Made by a program: the position numbers and the translations under genes. A DNA stretch of 64,000 nucleotides from contig JADIMM010000080.1 of assembly GCA_017694795.1 (NCBI GenBank), forward strand, positions 13,217-77,216, in the 5' to 3' direction. The notes below the pieces were generated by a model. It was not told the origin of the DNA. It saw nothing but the letters and a program-made list of their open reading frames with translations, and made no database searches. Of the stretch, positions 1-39,950 are shown in pieces. Origin of the DNA: Candidatus Gallitreponema excrementavium (lineage in GTDB: Bacteria > Spirochaetota > Spirochaetia > Treponematales > Treponemataceae). The first letter of the stretch is position 1; every line of letters begins with the position of its first letter.

Positions 1-450
1 TGTACCGGATTCTGCAGCAATATCAACACCATCATGGAAATGGGTACCTGAAGTTGAATCTGCAGTACCGGGGATTCCTTCCCGTATCCCATATTCACTG
101 GTAACAGCTGTCCCGTCTTCCAATGACTCTGTTCCCACCGGCCAGGAAACACCATTTACCACTTTAGCCAAATCCTCCCCTGAAGCAGTATCAACACCGG
201 TACTTATCACTGAATAAGAAGATTCCCCTCCCTCACCAATACTTACCGCAACACCATAAGAACCGGAAGAACCGGCCGGAACAGAAGAACCTTTACTGTT
301 ATTATTCCAGGCTGAATAAATTCCCCCTGAAGAGGAGGAATAACCAGACGATGATCCTGCTGCAGAAGAGGAACGGGATGAATACCCGCCGTTTATCCCA
401 AGCAAATCATCAAAAGAAAGCTCATAAAAACTTTTTTGTAAAACTTTCAT
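1..450 (-). CDS. M23/LytM-family metallopeptidase with an N-terminal double-glycine (bacteriocin-type) leader. Only the 5' part is present; the gene runs off the window start.
   Basis: Own translation of the minus strand from ATG 450..448. It is absent from the ORF track because no stop lies in the window. Sequence: MKVLQKSFYELSFDDLLGINGG/YSSRSSSAAGSSSGYSSSSGG...VSWPVGTESLEDGTAVTSEYGIREGIPGTADSTSGTHFHDGVDIAAESGT. An AGGAG SD sits 5 nt upstream. The leader fits LSxxELxxIxGG. WPV...TSxYGxR...HxGVDIAAxxGT is the M23 signature. Confidence 0.8.
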   Translation of the reverse strand, partial: MKVLQKSFYELSFDDLLGINGGYSSRSSSAAGSSSGYSSSSGGIYSAWNNNSKGSSVPAGSSGSYGVAVSIGEGGESSYSVISTGVDTASGEDLAKVVNGVSWPVGTESLEDGTAVTSEYGIREGIPGTADSTSGTHFHDGVDIAAESGT

Positions 451-778
451 AATACTCCTACTTTTTTTACATCTCAAGCAAATACCAACAGTATTTTAAG
501 CTTAAAATTTTATACGAAAAAAACAATATCCTATTTAACCCCCTAAGGATATGCCGGCAAAAAAAATCAAATGATTTTCCAACAAACCATAAAAAAGTAT
601 AATCGATTATTCCATAGTTTTCCTCCTTATATAAAATAAATTAAGTTAAAAAAAAATATTTTTTTTAACTTAAAACATTTCTCTAAATACTCAAATGTTT
701 TTTATTTTGCGGTATCACGGTTTTACCCTGTTTACGGAAATTTCTTAGACCTGACAGCATGAACATCTATAAAATACA

Positions 779-2443
779 TTAAGCAATACATACATCCGTA
801 TACCTAAATCCGATTTCTATACAATTAAACGGGGCTGCCTCTTTACTATTACATTCCATAAAAGAAAATTCTGCGAATGCTGAAAAACCATCAAGTAACA
901 TCACAAAATCATTATAGGATTCCATTTTTAAAATCTGCCAAGGTAAATCATCTCCGTTCCAATAATATATAATAACCCTTTCCACCCTTGAAATAATCAG
1001 CTGCCTGAATACAGCCCTTGGATCTGAAACAAACTCCCAGGACCCTATAAAACATACAGTCCCACTGAGATTTCTTAAAATAATTTCAGGACTAGAAACC
1101 ACAAAATTTGAATCCCTGTGTGTAACTGAAACCATTTTTTCTTCAGAATCCCAAATTGCTCCGCAGGTAATAAAATACATTTCATTGTTTTCTAAAGTAT
1201 GCTTATAAATTAAAGTATCAATTTTTCTTAATACGGAATTCTTCAGGTATAACTCAGCATTATTAAATTTTTGTACAATATTAAAATATTTTTTGTATGA
1301 AAAACTCCTTGTCATTTTCTGCCTGACTTTTTCATATATCTGCAAATGGGCATTTACAGATCTTTTCCATGACCAGGTTTTGCCCTCGCTGATTCCGTTG
1401 GAAATAAGTCTTTCCATTTTGTCATAATTTTTTACGGCTGTTTCCAAAACACTGGCAATACCGGCAGGGTTTTCGGGAATTGCAAGGGCATTTTTACCGT
1501 AAACAGCATAAGAATCCATCCCTAAACCTTTTGTGCACAAAAGCAATGCTCCGGAAGCCATTGCTTCGATTCCTGCAAGTCCAAATGGCTCATAATTACT
1601 TGGCATAACCATTATATCTGTTTCAGCCATTTCCTTATACAGATCTTCCTGTTTCAGGTATCCGGATCTGTCGATTAAAGAAATATCAATGCAGGCAGGA
1701 ATTTTCCCCCTGCCAAAGATTACATACTTGAGTTTGTTTTCAATTTTGAATTTCTTTCCAAGAATATTCACTGCCTCAATAAATTTTAAAAAACCTTTTT
1801 GTACATTTTCAAGTCTCCCAAAATAACCTATTGTAAGCTCTTTCCCTTTCAAAATCTTCTGGTCCAGTTTTTTTCCCGCCCTGGAAAACCTTGAAATCAG
1901 TTCCGTATTTATTCCAAGGGGCAGAACAAAAATATTCTCCGCTCGTGAATTCTTTAAAATTCTTTCAGCCGAAAAATCAGAATAGGCTATAACAGCACCG
2001 GAATTCTCCAGTGCAAGCCTTTCTATTTTCTGTTCCGGAAAATAAATATCATTAAGATTTCTCATTCCGATTAAATCCGTATACATAAGGTGGGAAGAGT
2101 ACACCACATTTTTTTTAAACCTGAAAGGAAGATAAGTCTGGCGGTCATTACAGTGTATAACATCAGGTTTAAAATCCAGAATAATCCGTTCAAGACTGTC
2201 CTAAAAACTTGCAGCAGTTTCAAGAATATTCCCTTCGATTGACACGGATGGAAATTTTTTTTCGGGAACCAGGACATAATCTATAGCCCCTCCAGGCTCA
2301 GGTGGAATTTCAGAGGAATAATGCAAATAAACTGCAACAACCTCTACAGTCTTTTTTAATTCTTTAACATAATCCCTGGTAAAAGACCCAAGCCCGCCAA
2401 ACTGATTTTCAGGATGTTCCGAAGTAACAAAAAGGACTTTCAT
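779..2443 (-). pseudogene. GT4-family glycosyltransferase. It is one reading frame interrupted by an in-frame TAG at 2201..2203 (pseudogene or read-through candidate).
   Basis: ORFs 2201..2443 and 779..2107 are in the same frame. The codons after the TAG read DSLERIILDFKPDVIHCNDRQTYLPFRFKKNVVYSSHL, running straight into the 442-aa ORF, whose M is really a GTG. N-terminus: MKVLFVTSEHPENQFGGLGSF. The C-terminal half carries EPFGLAGIEAMASG (E-x7-E). Confidence 0.75.
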
Positions 2444-5055: not shown

Positions 5056-7194
5056 TCAATTTAAAACAGTCCATGAAACATCTTTCTTTTCAAAACCTAC
5101 TGGTTTTACACCGTAGGTTCCGCCACCGGCATCACCGCCCTTAATCTCAATTCCATCGTAAGATACGCTTCCAGGATACATTCCGGTACAGTTAATTGTC
5201 CCGTCCATGCCTCCATTGGCAGAAGTATTTGCCGAAGTATTGCTGTTTCCTGACAAAACAAAATAGGGTCCCAGATCCTTATTATTATCGATATAGGAAT
5301 CTGCATAATCCGTATACTGAATAATTATCCTGGCACTAAGTCCGTTCAAGGTAGCATTATAATACACCTTACCGGAAATATCCCCCTGGTATTCTTCAGA
5401 CCCCAAGGCACTGGTACTTGGCTTATGCATCAGTTTGAGTTTTTTCTGGGAACTCAGTATTGTTTTGTTAAATTCCAGAATGTACTGTTCGTGGGTCAAA
5501 GCTCCGTACCCCACCTTTGTTTCGGAATAGTTATTCCCCTGTTCCAACTCATTGAGGGCGAGGACACGGTAATAGTAGTATTTTCCGGCCTTAGCCGTAT
5601 CATTTTTATCCACGAATTCACAGTCAGTAACCGGTACATCAGTAATTTTCCTAAAACCGGAATCTTTGGTTGTAGAACGGTAAACATGGTAGGCAGAGGC
5701 CCCTCCCTGAGGAGGCTCCCAGGTTATTTTTACAGGATATACCCCGGAGGAATTTGCAGGATAAAGGACTGCATCCCCAAGATTTTCCGCCCGGGAAGCA
5801 CTGACATTTTCTGCTGCAAAGGGAGCAGGAGCCACAGTGTCACTTTCAGAACTGGAAACACTGGCGTATAAAGTTTTAATGCGGTAGAATTTACTGGTTC
5901 CGGCAAGCTCTGCAGAACACTCACCGGGGGCTGTTCTACATAAAAAGGCAAAGCCGTCATCCTTCCGGTCAGAACCATAAATTTCATATTCGTACAAAGC
6001 CTGTTCTGTCTCATGCCCGATTGCCGGCTGCCAGGTAATACTGTGGCCGGTCTGATCTGCCGCAACACCAATTCCGGAAGGGGGACTTAATAAAAAGCCT
6101 TCAGAAGTCTCATCAGTACCGCCTTCAAAGGGGTCTACGGTGGAAATCTGGCTTTTAAGCTTTTTGCCGGTTTCATCCTCCACCCAGGCCTGGACCTGGT
6201 AATAATACAATATACCCGGCTTAACATTGTTTTTATCAGTCCATTCACAGGCTGTAGTCCCGCTTGTAAGCTGGGTAAGACTGGAGTCAATAGAACTGTA
6301 ACGGAAAACCGCATATTTAACCTCCCCTTCTCCGGAGGCAGAAGCATCCCATTTTAATTTAATTTCGGATATGGACGTTCCCCGGGTCAAAACCTTTACA
6401 GGAGAAGGCATCTGGGGAGCCCCAGACATAAGGGAATATCCCAAGCCAATATTGGAAGCCTCACTTAAAACACCGGCAGAATTTACAGCCTTTACGATGT
6501 AGTAAAAATCCACCCCCTGCTCAGATTCTTCAATCGTGTCCTTGTACCAGTTCTGATTACCTGTTATACGGGCTTTTTCTTCAGCACCGGTTCCGTCGGA
6601 ATTTTTTGTTCTGTATACCACATAACCTGACGCATTGTTTGCAAAATCCCAGGTAACCCTTATATTATCAGAAGCAGCCCCCTTCGTGGCATCAACATTT
6701 CCAGGAGGGGCAAACATTGTACCCGGTTTGGAACACAGGGCCGGATCACTGGCCTCGTATTTTTCCCGGTTGTTTTCCGCATATACACGGTACCAGTATT
6801 TGTATCCGTATTCTTCACTGGTATAAGAAGGATTACTTAGGATAACATCGGTATAGGAAGTTCCGTATACAGCCTTGTTTATAACCTCGAAATTTTCAGG
6901 TACCTTTCCTTCTGAATAGCCCGGGTCTTCAGGTGTCTGCACAGCCCTTTCAAGACAATAGGAAACGGCATAATCCACAGGATGCCAGGAAATACTGATG
7001 GAATCCGTTGCCAGGCCGCTGGAAACAAAAACCTGGGAAGAAGAATCCAGCTTGGTTATTTCTTTTTCCGTAACAAAAATATCACTCAAACTTCCATTGG
7101 AGCCCGGCCCCATGGCAATCTTGGTCTGAAACAAATCAGCACAGGAAGTAAGGAGGAAGAGGACCGGGAGTAAGAACAATATAAATTTACGCAT
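5056..7194 (-). CDS. Fibronectin type III repeat lipoprotein (about 712 aa)
   Basis: The ORF track gives 5056..7245. The preferred start is ATG 7194 (MRKFILFLLPVLFLLTSC lipobox), preceded by a GGAGAGG SD. It has at least 5 repeats of the FN3-like pattern I-x-V/I-S/T-W ... Y-x-V/L-Y-R ... YYY-x-V-x-A. Confidence 0.7.
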   Translation of the reverse strand: MRKFILFLLPVLFLLTSCADLFQTKIAMGPGSNGSLSDIFVTEKEITKLDSSSQVFVSSGLATDSISISWHPVDYAVSYCLERAVQTPEDPGYSEGKVPENFEVINKAVYGTSYTDVILSNPSYTSEEYGYKYWYRVYAENNREKYEASDPALCSKPGTMFAPPGNVDATKGAASDNIRVTWDFANNASGYVVYRTKNSDGTGAEEKARITGNQNWYKDTIEESEQGVDFYYIVKAVNSAGVLSEASNIGLGYSLMSGAPQMPSPVKVLTRGTSISEIKLKWDASASGEGEVKYAVFRYSSIDSSLTQLTSGTTACEWTDKNNVKPGILYYYQVQAWVEDETGKKLKSQISTVDPFEGGTDETSEGFLLSPPSGIGVAADQTGHSITWQPAIGHETEQALYEYEIYGSDRKDDGFAFLCRTAPGECSAELAGTSKFYRIKTLYASVSSSESDTVAPAPFAAENVSASRAENLGDAVLYPANSSGVYPVKITWEPPQGGASAYHVYRSTTKDSGFRKITDVPVTDCEFVDKNDTAKAGKYYYYRVLALNELEQGNNYSETKVGYGALTHEQYILEFNKTILSSQKKLKLMHKPSTSALGSEEYQGDISGKVYYNATLNGLSARIIIQYTDYADSYIDNNKDLGPYFVLSGNSNTSANTSANGGMDGTINCTGMYPGSVSYDGIEIKGGDAGGGTYGVKPVGFEKKDVSWTVLN

Positions 7195-7213
7195 TTTCTC
7201 TACCTCTCCCCTG

Positions 7214-10200
7214 TCAGTTATATACGAAATATCCGGAAACATCACTTCGGAAATCTCCTGTTTGGTTGTTGTAATTCACCGTGTAAGTTCCACCTCCATT
7301 CCTCATGGAATCAATGGTTACAGTTCCCTGATACATGGTTACTTCATTATCATTACATTGCAGAGTTAAAGTAGTAGGACTTGATTTTCCACCACTTGCT
7401 TCTCCTCCAATCCCGGCACAAACAGCTCCATACCAACGAGGTTTATTCCATGTTGCAGTAGCATATCCATACAATGTACCTGAAATTTTCAAAAAATACT
7501 TTGCTCCATTATTAAACTCAAAAGTTCTATTGTAGCCAATATTCCATTTAGTAACAGTACAATATCTTGAATCATAGGTTGAATCTGCAATAGATATTGC
7601 AGAGGCTGTTGCAAACTCCTTTGCCGTTATCTGCCTTGCCCCCCAGATACTGTCGTCGTCTCCCAACACAGCGGTTATTTCGGTTTCAACCCCGTCACTG
7701 TCTTTTATGGTGCGGACTGCTTCTATCTTGTAATAGTGCTTGTAGTCCCGCAGGACTTTCAATAACCCTCCGTGGACATCACCGGAGAAAACAGGGGTAA
7801 ACCGAAGCCCGGAACCGGAAACGGTAACATTTATATCAGACACATTTACAGCCGGGGTACCGTAACTTTCCTTGTTTACCGGTATGGTGGCTACAAGATT
7901 GTAGTTTCCGTCAATATTGTTATTCTTTACATACACCTTGTATTTTTCAGGACCGTTTTTCCTTTCAGTCCAGTTATAAGGAGTAATGGAAAGCTCTTCT
8001 GCAAAGGTAGATGCCCCGCCGTCTTTTATGTCTGTTTTGCTGGCTTCTGCCCCCACAACGGAGAAGAAATACCCCTTATTGGCAGGTTCATCCAGGGAAG
8101 AGTCCCCCTTTTGTGCTTCTGTGTAAGCTGCCAAAGGAGAATAAGTAAAGCCGGAGCTTCCGTCAGGAACGTATTTAACAACATAGTCATAGGCCTTGTT
8201 TCTGTTTGCCCCATCCCCACTTAAATGAACAGTAGCCTTGCTTCCCTCTGTTTCAAAATCAGCCTGGGAGTAGGTAGTCCAGGATGTTTCAGACATACCG
8301 GATTCCACCCTTAAAAGCACAGGCTTTAAAGTCCCGGTTCCTCCCATGTAGGGCTTTGTCCAGGTAACGGTAACGGTGTCGGCACTTTCCGCCTTTGTGG
8401 CTTTAACATCAAGGCCGTACCCAATGGCGGAACCTACAACATAATTTTTATCTGCATCCAAAAAGACAACGTCGTCTACAGTACAAAGGCTTATATTTTC
8501 CCCGTCCCGGCTGAATACAGGAACACTTGTTTTTACAGGGATAACCTGGTAACGGTAGGGATATCCCCAGCCCAGTTTATCCTGTTCAATACGGAATTTC
8601 CGGGTCGGATCATCCAGGTCAACATCCGTAGAGTCAGTATAGGTATCAGAAAGGGTAAAAACACCTTCACCGGCGGCAACCGAAGAAACAGGTGTCACAT
8701 CCTGCCCCACTACGGTCAAATTCTGCGTATCCACATCGTAAAAATAAACGAATTCCCCGTCTGAACTTCTTGAATCATCGGAATTGGATGCCCCGTACCG
8801 GGTCCTGGCAATAAGGTATCCGGTGGCTCCGGGAACTTCTTTCCAGCTTACATCTATACTGTTTTCATTTGCGGCAATTGTAGCTGTTGTTCCGGCTGCT
8901 GCAGGACCCAGGGTATATACAACGGTTTTTCCCTCTGTGTAAACATTTTCCAGATTTTCGTTAAGAGCCTTAACGGTGACTTCAACATTCCTTCCGGAAA
9001 ATTCCATGTAGTCATAACCGATAGGTTTTTCAAAAGTACAAGAAAGGGTATTTACTACACCGGGATCCCCATCTTCCTTTGCAACAGGAATTATTTTAGT
9101 ATCTGCCTCATAAGCCTGTGCAAAGGTAATAAATTCACCATCCCTCATTACCTTTGTATTTTCAGAAACACCTGGATACTTATAAGAAACCACATAGGAG
9201 GTTGCCTTCTCAATTTCAGGCCAGGAAACAGAAAGAGAATTCTGCGAAACCGTTACACTATCAAAGGTTACACCGGGAGTTCCAAGGGTATAAAAAACCT
9301 GGTCAAAGCTATAAGGAACCCCAATTTTTCCCTTACTGTCAACAGGCGTTATTTTAAATCTAAGGGCATCCCCGCTTTTTACGGTATAATTGCCGTCATC
9401 GGTGGCGGTAAATGAGAACACATACTCCTCAGAAGTTCCTTCACTGCCTGATTCCGAAACATCAGTTGCCTTAATTTCGGTTATAAGCTTATATGAATCT
9501 TCATCTTCTGTGTCCAGCCTGTATTCAAGCCTGTAAGTATTTACAGGATACCTGGTAAAGCCGATTTCAAATTTGTCAACAAACCCATCCCGGACAAAGG
9601 CGTTTTCAACCATAAGGGGATTAAGGTCTTCGACTATGTAACGGCTGTTGGAAGACTTTATTTCTTCGCTCCAACCGCTTTTTTTGTTGGTGATTTTTAC
9701 TACAAAACTGTAATTCCCCTCACCTTCCGGCAACTCGACATTATAGAAAGATTCTTCCAGTTGGGAACGGGTTAGTCCAGTACTTAACTGAACTGTCTCG
9801 GCAGGTTCTATCAATACTCCGGAAACAGGATCTATTTTATTAACAGAATAGGACAAATCAAAAGCATAATCATCATCAAGCCCTTTTGCATCAAAATCCA
9901 GCGTTCCCTGAAGCATAGCCATTATATGTACACCGGCTTTCGTATCATCTGTGTATACAACATTCTTCATCTGATAGGATGCGGTGGAAACAGGCCATCC
10001 TGTACCGGCTTGAGACGACAAATCCGAGGTTACCAGATTTGATACATTATCAGCATAGGACTGCACTTTATAAACATATTGCCGCCCCCTTTCTACATTT
10101 GTATCTTCCCAGACAACAGAAGCCCCTGGTTTATATGGTGAGTCCGGAGTGTCAGGTGTATATTGCCCTGCAAAACAGATTCCACTCTCGCCGGCATTGG

Positions 10201-18114: not shown

Positions 18115-18222
18115 TCCTAAGAATACAATGGTTTTACCGATTTGTGTAAAAAATTTTTAAAAATACTGTTTTTTAATAAGTATTTACAATATACTTTTAA
18201 AAGATTTTTTTCAGGAGAAAAT

Positions 18223-20409
18223 ATGGCAGAATTACTTGCACCGGCTGGAACAATCGAAGCATTGGACGCAGCCTTTGGAGAAGGGGCTGATGCTGTTTAT
18301 TTGGGATTGAAGTTTTTTAATGCCAGAATGAGGACTGCAAATTTTGCATGGAACCAGTTTGAAGCAGCGGTGTATGCCGCCCATAAACGAAATAAAAAAA
18401 TTTTTGTAACCGTTAATACGGTTTTGGAAGAACGGGAAACCGAAAGAATGTACCGCTTCCTGGCCTATCTCAACTCTGTAAAACCAGACGGTATAATAGT
18501 CCAGGATTTAGGTGTAGCCAGAATGGCAGAAACACACTTTCCTGAATTAAGACTCCACGGTTCCACCCAGATGAATATTTCCAGTGCAAGGGGTGCAAAC
18601 CTTTTAAGCAAGGAGGGATTTAAAAGAGTTGTACTGTCAAGAGAGCTGAGTCTGCCGGAAATAAAAGCAGTAAAAGCCTCTACTAATATTGAGCTTGAGG
18701 TTTTTGTTCACGGAGCTCTTTGTGTTAGTGAGTCGGGATTATGTCTGTTTTCCAGTTATCTTGGAGGAAAATCAGCAAACCGTGGTATCTGTGCCCAGGC
18801 GTGCAGGAGACTTTACAGTGCAAAATCAGACAGTGAATTACAGGAGGGGTATTTTTTCTCACCCCACGATCTCCAGCTTATAGAAAAAATCCCGGATCTT
18901 ATTGAAGCAGGAATTTCGTCATTTAAGATTGAAGGAAGGATGAAAAGCGCCGAATATGTGGGGACTGTCGTGGCAGCCTACAGATATCTTATGGACAATT
19001 ACCAGAATGATAAAAAGGGGGCAATTGCAAGTGCAAAGCGGATTCTGGCAAATGACTTTGCAAGGGAAAAAACCCTATACTGGTACACAAATGACGACGG
19101 CTCGGAACCGGACAGTAAATATTTTCTAAATCCAAAACAAGCGGGAGGAACAGGGATTTTTCTCGGAAAAATTACTTCGGTAAAGAGGGATAAAAACAAT
19201 ATTTGTTACGGGGCAATAAAAAATTCAACCTATGATCCCCAGCAGGGGGATTCAATACGAATCCATAAAAGTGACGACACCAGAAGGGAAAGCCACAAAG
19301 TAAAGACTGTCAGCACTGACGAGAGAGGTACAATCTGGATTGATATTCCACCGAATTTTTCCCAAGGAGATTCTGTTTATCTGATACAAATGAAAACTTA
19401 CGGAAAAAGATACGAACATTTTCTGCCTCGGGATTTAACGCCATTCAGAAAACAGCCGGGAGCCCAACCCCTTCCGCAACCACCAAGATTTGAAGATGCT
19501 GAAAAAGAAAGCCCTTTCCTTCCGGAAGGACTTTATGTACAGGTATCCTCCATAAAAGATTTATATGCCTTACAGATAAAACGCCCTGTAAAAGCTATTT
19601 TGGAGTATAACACCGAGATAAAAAATACACTCCTTAACTCTGATGCACCTCTTCCATTTTCCAAAAAAGAAATCATTATCAGTCTGGAACCTTTCTTTCC
19701 GGAATCATTGGAAAACGAACTCTTTGTGAACATTAACAAATTAATTGAAATGGGTTATTACCACTGGATTGTAAACAATCCGGGGCATATATCCTTTTTC
19801 AAGCAGAAAAATGTTACCGTTATCGCCGGCCCTTATCTTTATGTATTTAACAGGTGGGCCCTTAACTGGCTGAATGACAAGAAAATTTACCAGTTTATAA
19901 GTCCCATCGAAAATTCAAGGCAAAATCTTGAAAAAACCGTAGACCCCAAAATAAGGAAAAATGCATTTGTCACGGTTTTTGCCTACCCGGCCCTGTTCAG
20001 GATGAGGTTCAAACTTCCTGCATATTATGACTTTGTCAACTTTTCCGATAAACAGGAAGGGGAATTCCGGACTTTGGTTACACCGGAAGGGTCTTTTGTT
20101 CTTCCGGAAAACCCTTTTTCAATCGTGGATAAACTGGCCTTTCTGAAAAACAGTGGATTTAAAAGATTTATCATTGACTTTTCCAAAGTTGAAGTAAACA
20201 AACAGTCTTACCGCAGATTGATTCAGAATATGGAAAAGGGTATTCCCCTTCCTGAAACTACAAGATTCAACTGGAAAGACGGTTTCTATAGTCCAGAACA
20301 CAGCCCGGCGGCCGCAAAAGAAGGAAAAACAGGAGATTCCGGTAAAAAACCAGCCATTAACAGGAACAGGGGCAAGTCCTCAAAAACAACTGGGAAAAGG
20401 AAAAAATGA
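18223..20409 (+). CDS. Peptidase U32 family protein (collagenase-like)
   Basis: The track ORF starts at a TTG at 18142. ATG 18223 (MAELLAPAGTIEALDAAFGEGADAVYLG) follows an AGGAG SD. E-x-F-x-H-G-A-L-C region: ELEVFVHGALCVSESGLC. The C-terminal tail is basic. Confidence 0.8.
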   Translation: MAELLAPAGTIEALDAAFGEGADAVYLGLKFFNARMRTANFAWNQFEAAVYAAHKRNKKIFVTVNTVLEERETERMYRFLAYLNSVKPDGIIVQDLGVARMAETHFPELRLHGSTQMNISSARGANLLSKEGFKRVVLSRELSLPEIKAVKASTNIELEVFVHGALCVSESGLCLFSSYLGGKSANRGICAQACRRLYSAKSDSELQEGYFFSPHDLQLIEKIPDLIEAGISSFKIEGRMKSAEYVGTVVAAYRYLMDNYQNDKKGAIASAKRILANDFAREKTLYWYTNDDGSEPDSKYFLNPKQAGGTGIFLGKITSVKRDKNNICYGAIKNSTYDPQQGDSIRIHKSDDTRRESHKVKTVSTDERGTIWIDIPPNFSQGDSVYLIQMKTYGKRYEHFLPRDLTPFRKQPGAQPLPQPPRFEDAEKESPFLPEGLYVQVSSIKDLYALQIKRPVKAILEYNTEIKNTLLNSDAPLPFSKKEIIISLEPFFPESLENELFVNINKLIEMGYYHWIVNNPGHISFFKQKNVTVIAGPYLYVFNRWALNWLNDKKIYQFISPIENSRQNLEKTVDPKIRKNAFVTVFAYPALFRMRFKLPAYYDFVNFSDKQEGEFRTLVTPEGSFVLPENPFSIVDKLAFLKNSGFKRFIIDFSKVEVNKQSYRRLIQNMEKGIPLPETTRFNWKDGFYSPEHSPAAAKEGKTGDSGKKPAINRNRGKSSKTTGKRKK

Positions 20410-38215: not shown

Positions 38216-39147
38216 TAGAAAGTATTCTTTCCGAGGGATTAATATATTCCATAATGGTTCTGGGAGTTTTTATTACTTTCAGACTTTTGAATTTTGCAGA
38301 CATGACGGTAGACGGTTCATTTCCTTTGGGAGCCTGTATTCTGGCAGCCTGCCTTGTAAATGGGATAAACCCGGCTACAGGACTTTTTCTTGCCTTTGGA
38401 GGTGGTGTGGTTTCCGGTCTTGTAACAGCCCTGATTCACACCAAACTGAAAATTCCGGGACTGTTGGCGGGTATCCTTACAATGACAATGCTGGGTTCAA
38501 TCAACTTGCGTATCATGGGGAACCGCTCCAATATAAGCTACTTAAAAACAGATACACTGTTCACTGATATAACAAAAACAATTTCAGGACCCCTGCCAGA
38601 AGAATGGACACTGGTTGTTTTTCTTTTTATATCCGTGCTTATAATAAAGACAGTTTTGGATATTTTCTTCCACACTGATTTTGGCCTTACATTGGGAGCC
38701 CAGGGTTCAAATGAACAGATGATAATCAGCCAAGGTATGAACCCGGAAATTATAAAAGCCACAGGAATAGCGTTGGCAAACGGATTGAGTGCTTTTTCCG
38801 GAGCCTATGCTTCTATGTATTTAGGGTATGCCGATACGGGAATGGGAACCGGGGTAGTGGTTTCCGGCCTTGCCTCCCTTATGCTAGGTGAATTTGTCAT
38901 CCGCTCCAATAAAATTTCTTTCCTTACATTAAGGGTTATCATAGGCTCAATAATTTACAGGGGAATAATGTACTTTGGAAGAATCTACGGACACTACATC
39001 AATCTTACAGCAAATGACTTAAAACTCATAACCGGTATTCTTATAATTTTGTGTCTTGTAGTTTCAGGTTACGGGGATAAATTCATTAATAAAATCCGTA
39101 ATTTAAAAACAGAAACTTTAAAAAAAGGTAAAGGGGTTAATCCGTGA
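38212..39147 (+). CDS. ABC transporter permease (BPD_transp_2-like)
   Basis: 311 aa and polytopic. It overlaps its neighbours by 4 nt at both ends. Confidence 0.75.
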   Translation: MIESILSEGLIYSIMVLGVFITFRLLNFADMTVDGSFPLGACILAACLVNGINPATGLFLAFGGGVVSGLVTALIHTKLKIPGLLAGILTMTMLGSINLRIMGNRSNISYLKTDTLFTDITKTISGPLPEEWTLVVFLFISVLIIKTVLDIFFHTDFGLTLGAQGSNEQMIISQGMNPEIIKATGIALANGLSAFSGAYASMYLGYADTGMGTGVVVSGLASLMLGEFVIRSNKISFLTLRVIIGSIIYRGIMYFGRIYGHYINLTANDLKLITGILIILCLVVSGYGDKFINKIRNLKTETLKKGKGVNP

Positions 39148-39950
39148 TAAGCTTGAAAAATATTGATATGGTTTTCGGGGAAGGCACAGCAGACAGGAAT
39201 CATGTTCTAAAAAATATAAACCTGACCATAAACCCCGGAGATTTTATCACTGTTATCGGTTCAAACGGAGCCGGAAAATCAACACTCTATAATGTTATTG
39301 CCGGAACATTAAGACCTACAAAGGGCGAAATATTTTTAACCAGGGATAATGAAGCCCCTAAAAATATAACAAAAGACAAGGAATACAAGAGAGCTTATTA
39401 TATCGGAAGAATTTTCCAGGATCCACTTTTGGGAACGGCCGGTAAAATGTCCATAGCCGACAATATGCTAATTTGCAGTAAAAAAGGCTGGAAAGGCCTC
39501 AAAATCAGCCTTAACAAAAAACTCCGGGAAGAATTTAAGGAAAAGCTGAAAATTCTTGACATGGGCCTTGAAAACCGCATTAACGAAAATGTAGAAAAAC
39601 TTTCCGGTGGACAAAGGCAGGCTCTGACACTTTTAATGGCAGTAATGTCAAAACCATCCCTGTTGCTTTTAGACGAACATACCGCAGCCCTCGACCCTGG
39701 GAATGCCGAAGCTGTAATGAAACTTACAAAGGAGTTTGCAAAAGAATACAATCTCACGGTGATGATGATTACACACAATATGAATCATGCCTTGGAATAC
39801 GGAAACAGGCTCCTGATGATGGACAGCGGGGAAATTATCATGGATATTTCAGGAAAAGAAAAAGAAAACCTTACAATGGATGTTCTTATAAAAAGATTTA
39901 AAGAAATAAAAAAACAGGAACTTAACAGCGATGCAATGCTTTTAGGATAG
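39144..39950 (+). CDS. ABC transporter ATP-binding protein
   Basis: 268 aa. Walker A GSNGAGKST, signature LSGGQRQ and Walker B LLLLDEHTAALD. Confidence 0.9.
   Translation: MISLKNIDMVFGEGTADRNHVLKNINLTINPGDFITVIGSNGAGKSTLYNVIAGTLRPTKGEIFLTRDNEAPKNITKDKEYKRAYYIGRIFQDPLLGTAGKMSIADNMLICSKKGWKGLKISLNKKLREEFKEKLKILDMGLENRINENVEKLSGGQRQALTLLMAVMSKPSLLLLDEHTAALDPGNAEAVMKLTKEFAKEYNLTVMMITHNMNHALEYGNRLLMMDSGEIIMDISGKEKENLTMDVLIKRFKEIKKQELNSDAMLLG

Follow-up and report, generated by a model that had tools for sequence, protein, structure and literature searches.

C39-peptidase ATP-binding cassette (C39-ABC) exporters are commonly held to handle peptides smaller than ~10 kDa, and wall-degrading bacteriocins to leave the cell via the Sec pathway. 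Here we examine a gene at the left edge of a 64,000-nucleotide stretch of the chicken-gut spirochaete Candidatus Gallitreponema excrementavium (assembly GCA_017694795.1, contig JADIMM010000080.1, positions 13,217 to 77,216 of the forward strand; hereafter the window), the predicted product of which joins a double-glycine leader, a Ser/Gly-rich linker and an M23 peptidase. From this gene and its relatives we conclude, with a probability of roughly 0.65, that the leader-M23 family represents exporter-dependent M23 toxins with matching immunity proteins; our confidence that export is active in this particular genome lies below that family-level figure.

Relation to described systems

In the periodontal pathogen Treponema denticola, secreted proteins of 167, 614 and 607 amino acids (aa) bear a double-glycine leader; their genes each follow a lipoprotein gene and lie upstream of the tepA1-B1 C39-ABC exporter (PMC11879956). 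The likeness to the system proposed here consists in the spirochaete lineage, the presence of the leader on large proteins, an adjoining gene for a signal-peptide or lipoprotein partner, the proximity of a C39-ABC exporter with its adaptor, and the recovery of the proteins from the culture supernatant. The T. denticola proteins, however, possess no recognised enzymatic domain or known activity and no killing by them was detected, whereas the protein described here carries a peptidoglycan hydrolase domain. Furthermore, the T. denticola partner gene is located upstream and encodes ~400 aa, whereas the partner described here is built from a different module of ~180 aa, and in this genome no exporter is linked (the two systems were compared by description).

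Millericin B of Streptococcus milleri (MilB, MilF, MilT) is a murein hydrolase bacteriocin served by a dedicated ABC transporter and accompanied by an immunity gene (PMC4786598, PMC7476776). It differs from the present system in its single-membraned host, in an immunity of the FemAB-like type that alters the cross-bridge, and in having neither a Ser/Gly linker nor swappable domains. MilB reportedly (Beukes and Hastings, 2001) carries an 18-aa leader ending in IIGG. An earlier reading of the DNA made from its letters alone (hereafter the sequence-only reading) had stated that double-glycine leaders normally sit on small peptides and that the present arrangement is unusual; given that the large T. 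denticola proteins and millericin B precede it, this was put too strongly.

The M23 bacteriolysins lysostaphin, zoocin A and enterolysin A possess Sec signals, C-terminal wall-targeting domains (SH3b or similar) and FemAB-type immunity (PMC7476776, PMC12116727). Their catalytic fold, zinc motifs and use as a wall-degrading weapon (the latter being proposed here) are shared with the leader-M23 protein. When the latter was compared with this class III type, no Sec signal, no domain after the M23 core and no FemAB-like domain in the called neighbours were found. Judged by its domain layout, the leader-M23 protein should not be regarded as a class III bacteriolysin, though it may work similarly. 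Class II microcins (MccV with CvaA, CvaB and TolC) and PCAT1 share with it the leader signature, as well as a three-part exporter in double-membraned bacteria. The cargo of class II microcin exporters is described as smaller than 10 kDa (PMC10231218), whereas an enzyme of 226 aa is predicted as the mature protein here.

Polymorphic toxins (Rhs proteins, contact-dependent inhibition systems and type VI effectors that have periplasmic immunity proteins; PMC3482391) resemble the family in combining a constant front end with variable C-terminal toxins, in the adjoining immunity gene, in the arrays of immunity paralogues, and in the occurrence of related M23 domains as Rhs tips. What differs is the trafficking module, which here would be a double-glycine leader together with a C39-ABC exporter. 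When the main text of the 2012 survey covering these toxins (PMC3482391) was searched by term, 'double-glycine' occurred 0 times, and C39 is mentioned there only as the name of a toxin domain or in passing comparison with leader-cleaving C39/ComA peptidases, never among the trafficking routes listed. Our literature search retrieved no paper in which an M23 domain is combined with a double-glycine leader, the sole co-occurrence of the two being unrelated.

The leader-M23 gene and its product

Read on the minus strand, the first 450 nucleotides of the window translate into MKVLQKSFYELSFDDLLGINGG, followed by a Ser/Gly-rich stretch and by SWPVG...TSEYGIREGIPG...THFHDGVDIAAESGT, which matches exactly the gene quoted in the sequence-only reading. 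That reading had seen here a double-glycine leader, a Ser/Gly linker and an M23 peptidase; this architecture, with no Sec signal, is upheld by the translation, a PF01551 match, the family alignment and hydropathy. A ribosome-binding site precedes the ATG (Table 1), and an in-frame stop lies 15 codons upstream of it. The full-length product is MBO8457879.1 (P0035; 248 aa), named 'M23 family metallopeptidase' at NCBI and identical over all 150 residues encoded in the window; residues beyond 150 were read from this protein, and of the catalytic motifs only H139-D143 lies inside the window. A protein search retrieved full-length relatives of 248 aa at 89-95% identity, and the full-length allele P0001 is 95% identical to the window protein. 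The 248-aa reading frame is intact, with the catalytic residues kept, in most of the 114 sequences of the cluster.

The leader signature recognised by C39 domains is L(-12)-x3-E(-8)-L(-7) followed by GG (PMC8277102). Counted back from the GG, the present leader has F-15, L-12, S-11, D-8, L-7, I-4, G-2 and G-1, and all of these except F-15 had been numbered in the same way in the sequence-only reading. Compared with a general leader definition (15-30 aa, GG end, hydrophobic residues at -4, -7, -12 and -15, acidic residue at -8), it offers I-4, L-7, L-12, F-15 and D-8 at the respective positions. In an alignment of 11 family sequences (A1; 37-47% identity apart from one allele that is 90% identical), L-12, L-7, N-3 and G-2 (L11, L16, N20 and G21) are invariant and G-1 (G22) is nearly so. 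The key positions L-12, L-7, G-2 and G-1 are kept in register across at least 14 diverged relatives, and 17 of 18 within-species alleles retain all consensus positions.

A regular expression describing the leader matched 2 of 2439 background open reading frames (ORFs), one of them being the leader-M23 gene itself, and the motif arose in 17 of 200,000 shuffles of the N-terminus. A Sec signal was judged by our own measure, the Kyte-Doolittle mean over 10 residues, the top value of which is 0.7 for the leader-M23 N-terminus versus 3.1-3.6 in the signal peptides of the partner proteins; the N-terminus thus has no hydrophobic core, and by this measure it has no Sec signal. The net charge of the leader is -1, and AlphaFold2 places a short helix at residues 13-19, with low confidence. 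Considering the rarity of the motif in background ORFs and shuffles, the lack of a hydrophobic core and the recurrence of the same layout in other clusters, we take the leader match to be genuine and not a chance resemblance.

The linker is composed to 73% of S, G, A, T and Y; residues 20-91, which take in nearly all of it, have an AlphaFold2 predicted local distance difference test score (pLDDT) below 50, and in A1 it is unalignable across the family, unlike the leader. Eight amino-acid changes separate the window protein from the allele on L001, a syntenic contig, and all of them fall in codons 1-92 (K6R in the leader, the rest in the linker); over codons 93-150 the same comparison gives 0 non-synonymous and 4 synonymous changes, which are small counts. 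Within the latter segment, A95, V97, G100, G106, G121, H139, G141 and D143 are invariant in A1.

Further along, in its second half, the protein has its catalytic His (YGH187) and also PH218LH220F, the HxH motif whose absence the sequence-only reading had named as fatal to its proposal. A1 shows no variation at H139, D143 and H187 and hardly any at H218 and H220. PF01551, the model proposed in that reading, matches the full-length allele P0001 at residues 138-227 with 106.6 bits against a gathering cutoff of 28.7 (E = 7.5e-31), so that the M23 core, there called unmistakable, is confirmed. The window fragment alone gave no Pfam or NCBIfam match because its 150 aa are too short, a difficulty resolved by the full-length alleles. 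In the AlphaFold2 model the M23 core reaches a pLDDT of 80-90, and Foldseek aligns it with 9gy1 (E = 3.4e-11, target-normalised TM-score 0.83), LytM (0.76) and the catalytic domain of lysostaphin (0.72); StM23, LytM, lysostaphin and zoocin A were the solved structures retrieved by the Foldseek and sequence searches. Degenerate LytM factors, such as EnvC and NlpD, are without the full catalytic set. By its intact residues and modelled fold, the M23 domain is predicted to be a catalytically competent zinc endopeptidase of the LytM/lysostaphin type.

After the HxH motif, at residues 223-239 (beyond the left window edge), A1 displays a conserved DGNGDGxYxD...DNP loop. It is similar to DxNxDG loops that bind calcium, and export might be coupled to folding through it.

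Distribution of the leader-M23 family

An exhaustive HMMER search of 1.84 billion representatives yielded nine other 50%-identity clusters combining the leader, a low-complexity linker and the M23 domain, and a profile search added five further members (P0228-P0232). So far the family has been found only in Treponema-like spirochaetes. When P0001 was scanned against 185,579 species, one genome each, no orthologue was retrieved and the matches were to generic M23 domains only (25-46% identity; Chloroflexota among other phyla). Several C-terminal tips of Rhs toxins (TIGR03696 above cutoff) rank among the nearest M23 relatives.

A candidate immunity protein beside the M23 gene

Directly left of the window, on L001, a 366-aa partner is encoded, the start codon of which shares one base with the M23 stop codon. 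It has a Sec signal and two tandem modules of ~180 aa. This Sec-signal module flanks the M23 gene at every locus with readable flanks: apart from L001_366, its homologues are L049_187, L049_361 (again two modules), L048_202, L052_190 (loci L052-54), L051_149 and L066_195. The partner gene is intact in 121 sequences (92-99% identity). We regard the ~180-aa Sec-exported module as a likely immunity protein. The sequence-only reading had placed an immunity factor left of the window, and a candidate gene does lie there; its suggestion that the factor would be FemAB-like did not hold, the candidate being a Sec-exported two-module protein. No FemAB-like immunity gene occurs among the called neighbours. 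A sequence comparison of the partner with the PDB returned nothing meaningful. An alanyl-tRNA synthetase (AlaRS)-like gene ~200 bp beyond the partner was also considered as a part of the system and rejected; it is most likely a housekeeping gene.

Exporters in relatives of the locus

The proposal that the protein is routed through a C39-peptidase ABC exporter draws its support from genomic context in relatives. Locus L049 displays, in this order, a GT4-family glycosyltransferase, a 746-aa C39-ABC exporter, an HlyD-like adaptor, proteins of 437, 187 and 361 aa, and a leader-M23 gene; the exporter scores above the curated NCBIfam cutoff for TIGR01193 and its catalytic Cys and His motifs are present. 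In L055, the exporter operon is located 4.5 kb from the leader-M23 gene, so that both loci have full exporter operons no more than 10 kb from homologous leader-M23 genes. In L053/L054, a 140-aa C39 fragment (7277-7699) that has lost the N-terminus with the catalytic cysteine adjoins the M23 gene and its partner, and appears from its sequence to be a decayed exporter. A transposase-associated fragment is found near it.

The complete genome of Brucepastera parasyntrophica has a leader-M23 gene (P0083) without an exporter within 10 kb. Some 1.5 Mb away, this genome encodes an exporter, adaptor, third gene and GT4, and the exporter is adjoined by three cargo genes with the same leader and linker as P0083. 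On the strength of this distance, an unlinked cargo gene served by a distant exporter would be a real arrangement in the family. The third genes of the exporter operons encode proteins of 374-509 aa, for which we assume an outer-membrane role; Pfam returned nothing for L049_437 and L055_504, and NCBIfam nothing for L049_437.

As for an exporter belonging to this species, a profile search built on two exporters gave 872 matches, of which the best 120 were listed and twenty clusters were checked by name. The exporter contexts P0435, P0395 and P0434 have a composition unlike that of the window (tetranucleotide correlation 0.52-0.80) and were rejected. The context of P0575 (loci L060-L062) correlates with the window at 0.94-0.955, the same-genome control being 0.97, and of its three contigs, two belong to the European Nucleotide Archive sample series that also yielded the M23 contigs. 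Against its assignment to this genome stand a G+C content of 35% versus 41%, a different cargo leader, and a GT4 just 41% identical to that of the window. We therefore keep L060-L062 as a candidate exporter locus but do not ascribe it to this species. Export in this genome would have to rely on an exporter encoded elsewhere, unless the exporter has been lost.

Exchangeable cargo domains

The leader and linker are not confined to M23 proteins. The 304-aa protein L055_304 and the M23 protein P0232 have their first ~113 residues in common and then diverge, and the 306-aa Brucepastera protein L048_306 shares ~160 residues with the M23 protein P0083 at 61% identity. At least three types of cargo C-terminal domain can be distinguished: the M23 domain, a Cys/His domain and a third type. 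The Cys/His domain, which has a conserved Cys (ACAATS motif) and His (HF motif) and may be a papain-like enzyme, is also present in L061_277 and, as a fragment, in L049_79. Genes for Cys/His cargo are followed by genes for partner proteins of ~230-245 aa, and in L061 the Cys/His cargo stands next to seven Sec-signal paralogues, of ~230 aa except for one of 307 aa, a row that looks like a multi-immunity array. The third cargo type occurs beside the Brucepastera exporter and is followed by Sec-signal proteins of ~190 aa with a degenerate M23 domain; in this locus (L067) a catalytically dead M23 fold may thus serve as an immunity protein. Each cargo type is paired with its own partner family, the shared front ends having been read in relatives and not in the window. 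Taken together, the shared front ends, the cargo-specific partner families and the relationship of the M23 domain to Rhs tips would give the leader-M23 family the hallmarks of a polymorphic toxin-immunity system.

The adjoining glycosyltransferase

The gene directly upstream of the M23 gene encodes a GT4-family glycosyltransferase that is 41-42% identical to the exporter-adjoining GT4 proteins of L049, L056, L061, L063 and L067. GT4 proteins of this kind (540-580 aa, with an unassigned C-terminal extension of ~170 aa) adjoin the exporter operon in five of seven loci, and the M23 gene here. The GT4 may be functionally linked to the export system, and the enzyme might modify the Ser-rich linker of the cargo. 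The linker itself could be a spacer, a disordered segment for translocation or a target for glycosylation.

Table 1. Positions of the elements discussed, in the window unless another locus is named
Feature	Position	Strand	Remark
Leader-M23 gene, first 150 of 248 codons (pre-protein: leader, linker, M23)	1..450	-	runs past the left window edge
Pre-core conserved segment (LAKVVNGVSWPVG...TSEYGIRE) and start of M23 core, codons 93-150	1..174	-	conservation in A1
Zinc motif H139-x3-D143 (within HFHDGVD)	22-42	-	encoded in the window
Ser/Gly-rich low-complexity linker, codons 23-92	175..384	-	predicted disordered
Double-glycine leader MKVLQKSFYELSFDDLLGINGG, codons 1-22	385..450	-	predicted cleavage after G22
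Ribosome-binding site AGGAG	455..459	-	4 nt upstream of ATG at 448-450; read from sequence
GT4-family glycosyltransferase gene, 554 codons	779..2443	-	directly upstream of M23 gene
GT4 gene of L049	1652-3304		
GT4 gene of L056	8132-9877		
GT4 gene of L061	5787-7412		
GT4 gene of L063	8045-9748		
GT4 gene of L067	14700-16355		
Cys/His cargo family locus, L061	660-9891		
Cys/His cargo family locus, L048	880-1800		
Cys/His cargo family locus, L055	5507-6421		
Third-cargo partner genes, L067 (Brucepastera parasyntrophica CP084606, 596669-618819)	3118-3687, 5130-5699, 8176-8748		

Proposed mode of action

In the mode of action that we favour, the leader would dock on the C39 peptidase domain of the ABC exporter and be removed after the GG (G22). 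The 226-residue cargo would then exit through the exporter, the HlyD-like adaptor and the outer-membrane component, bypassing the periplasm of the producer, as a result of which it would never meet the producer's own cell wall. Outside the cell, the M23 domain would cut the peptidoglycan cross-links of competing bacteria, while the Sec-exported 366-aa partner would sit in the periplasm and shield both the producer and kin cells. That the protein is cleaved, exported and able to kill, and that the partner confers immunity, is inferred. A broader proposal, to which we give somewhat less than even odds, is that the family represents an as yet unclassified way of delivering polymorphic toxins in Treponema-like spirochaetes, with the leader and linker acting as a universal handle by which a C39-ABC exporter, its adaptor and an outer-membrane component would export at least three exchangeable toxin domains, with type-specific periplasmic immunity (the immunity genes sometimes in arrays) and possibly with modification of the linker by the GT4.

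Evidence against the toxin reading and alternative explanations

A number of observations weigh against an exported toxin, mainly in this genome. Across ~74 kb, made up of the 64-kb window and the next 10 kb to its left as read from L001, no C39-ABC exporter is encoded. The sequence-only reading had expected one just left of the window and was mistaken in this, as the 10 kb beyond the edge hold the partner gene and housekeeping genes (beyond the partner, the AlaRS-like gene, a rotamase, NusB, a tetratricopeptide repeat protein and SbcCD). Searching the window and L001 by tblastn for remnants of the exporter, adaptor and third-gene proteins returned only an unrelated ABC ATPase (39141-39950). 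A single ABC ATPase gene (39168-39950) is present in the window; with permease-like and lipoprotein ORFs on hand next to it, we read it as belonging to a putative importer-like cluster. Among the best 120 of the 872 exporter matches, none of the twenty clusters checked was named Gallitreponema, and those with names were all Treponema sp., T. socranskii or Spirochaetia. Synteny suggests that the exporter was lost from this very spot, since the GT4 abuts the cargo gene here (gap of 328 bp), whereas an exporter operon stands between the two in L049. The GT4 of the window is moreover interrupted by an in-frame TAG at codon 81 (2201-2203, minus strand), where the 97-98% identical L001 allele has CAG; the gene may be a pseudogene in this strain alone, or the TAG may stem from an error in sequencing or assembly. 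In some strains the allele is 132 aa long (P0004 and P0039, on contigs up to 192 kb) and the whole M23 catalytic core is missing from it, ...SLEDG being joined straight to KYNDPKYD... by an in-frame deletion of residues 114-230, and in one further allele D replaces G-2. No family or structure could be assigned to the partner (Pfam gave only the sub-threshold matches DUF7738, DUF3862 and DUF4309, and NCBIfam none), and its AlphaFold2 model, built from a shallow alignment, has a mean pLDDT of only 37. Finally, the secreted enzyme would presumably need to cross the outer membrane of a double-membraned target.

Many of these points are what would be expected of a stranded relic, in which the exporter operon has been deleted from the locus and the pre-protein, unexported, stays in the cytoplasm and slowly decays, harmless because it never meets peptidoglycan. 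The missing exporter, the three exporter-operon genes (exporter, adaptor and third gene) that separate the orthologous GT4 and cargo in L049, the nonsense mutation in the GT4, the natural alleles without the core or with the altered G-2, and the decay of the L053/L054 exporters to fragments beside the cargo all agree with such a history. On the other hand, a relic would hardly be expected to keep its 248-aa frame and catalytic residues in most members of the cluster, to show only synonymous changes over codons 93-150 (few as these are), or to retain an intact and highly conserved partner gene; the Brucepastera cargo shows that distance from an exporter is not by itself a sign of loss, and L060-L062 offer an exporter locus of similar composition. 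We regard the relic as unlikely, though as the most serious of the alternatives. Far less probable in our view is a housekeeping autolysin that remodels the producer's own wall during division or shaping, like MepM, ShyA or the Helicobacter Csd proteins, the leader being an unusual export signal or pro-peptide and the partner a regulator. Most M23 proteins of double-membraned bacteria are indeed housekeeping endopeptidases, the top NCBIfam similarities of the protein are to ShyC, MepM and Pgp3 (all far under cutoffs), and the partner is predicted to be periplasmic, where a regulator would act. Yet the gene is patchily distributed, with no close relative across the 185,579 species scanned, nature tolerates alleles without the core, unrelated C-terminal domains bear the same leader and linker, the nearest relatives are Rhs toxin tips, and the gene is accompanied by exporter operons and by rows of partner paralogues rather than by division genes. 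Least credible of all is a chance resemblance, by which an ordinary M23 enzyme would merely have a leader-like N-terminus or start at another codon. Short motifs can arise by chance, and no bacteriocin-signal model (TIGR01847, which the sequence-only reading had suggested, or PF10439) was reported for the protein or its first 39 residues (NCBIfam, E up to 10); short leader models are easily lost to the HMMER speed filters, and the sister cargo L055_304 has a sub-threshold PF10439 match (E = 0.0078). A coincidence is opposed by the rarity of the motif (~1 in 2400 background ORFs, and the shuffles), by its being in register in the diverged relatives, by the upstream in-frame stop and the ribosome-binding site before the ATG, and by the absence of an alternative signal peptide.

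Other features of the window

Two further observations concern other parts of the window. The gene for a 729-aa fibronectin-type-III-like surface protein (5056-7245, minus strand) has a synonymous divergence from L001 of ~0.22, versus 0.04-0.06 in the flanking genes, which makes this predicted surface protein gene a local hot-spot where divergence or recombination is concentrated. ARAGORN calls an 83-nt tRNA-Arg (anticodon tct; 19397-19479, minus strand) inside a 755-aa ORF on the opposite strand (18142-20409), so that the tRNA or the ORF must be spurious.

Implications

The case for exporter-dependent M23 toxins is weaker for this particular genome, where the exporter is unlinked and may be missing, than for the family. 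A folded enzyme of 226 residues on the double-glycine route would stretch the picture of these exporters as conveyors of peptides only, and so would the other toxin domains that carry the same leader and linker. The family may be a source of new lytic enzymes and of enzyme-inhibitor pairs, and its leader a possible secretion tag for enzyme-sized cargo. If the toxin reading is true, the large secreted double-glycine proteins of Treponema denticola could likewise be antibacterial weapons with immunity partners.

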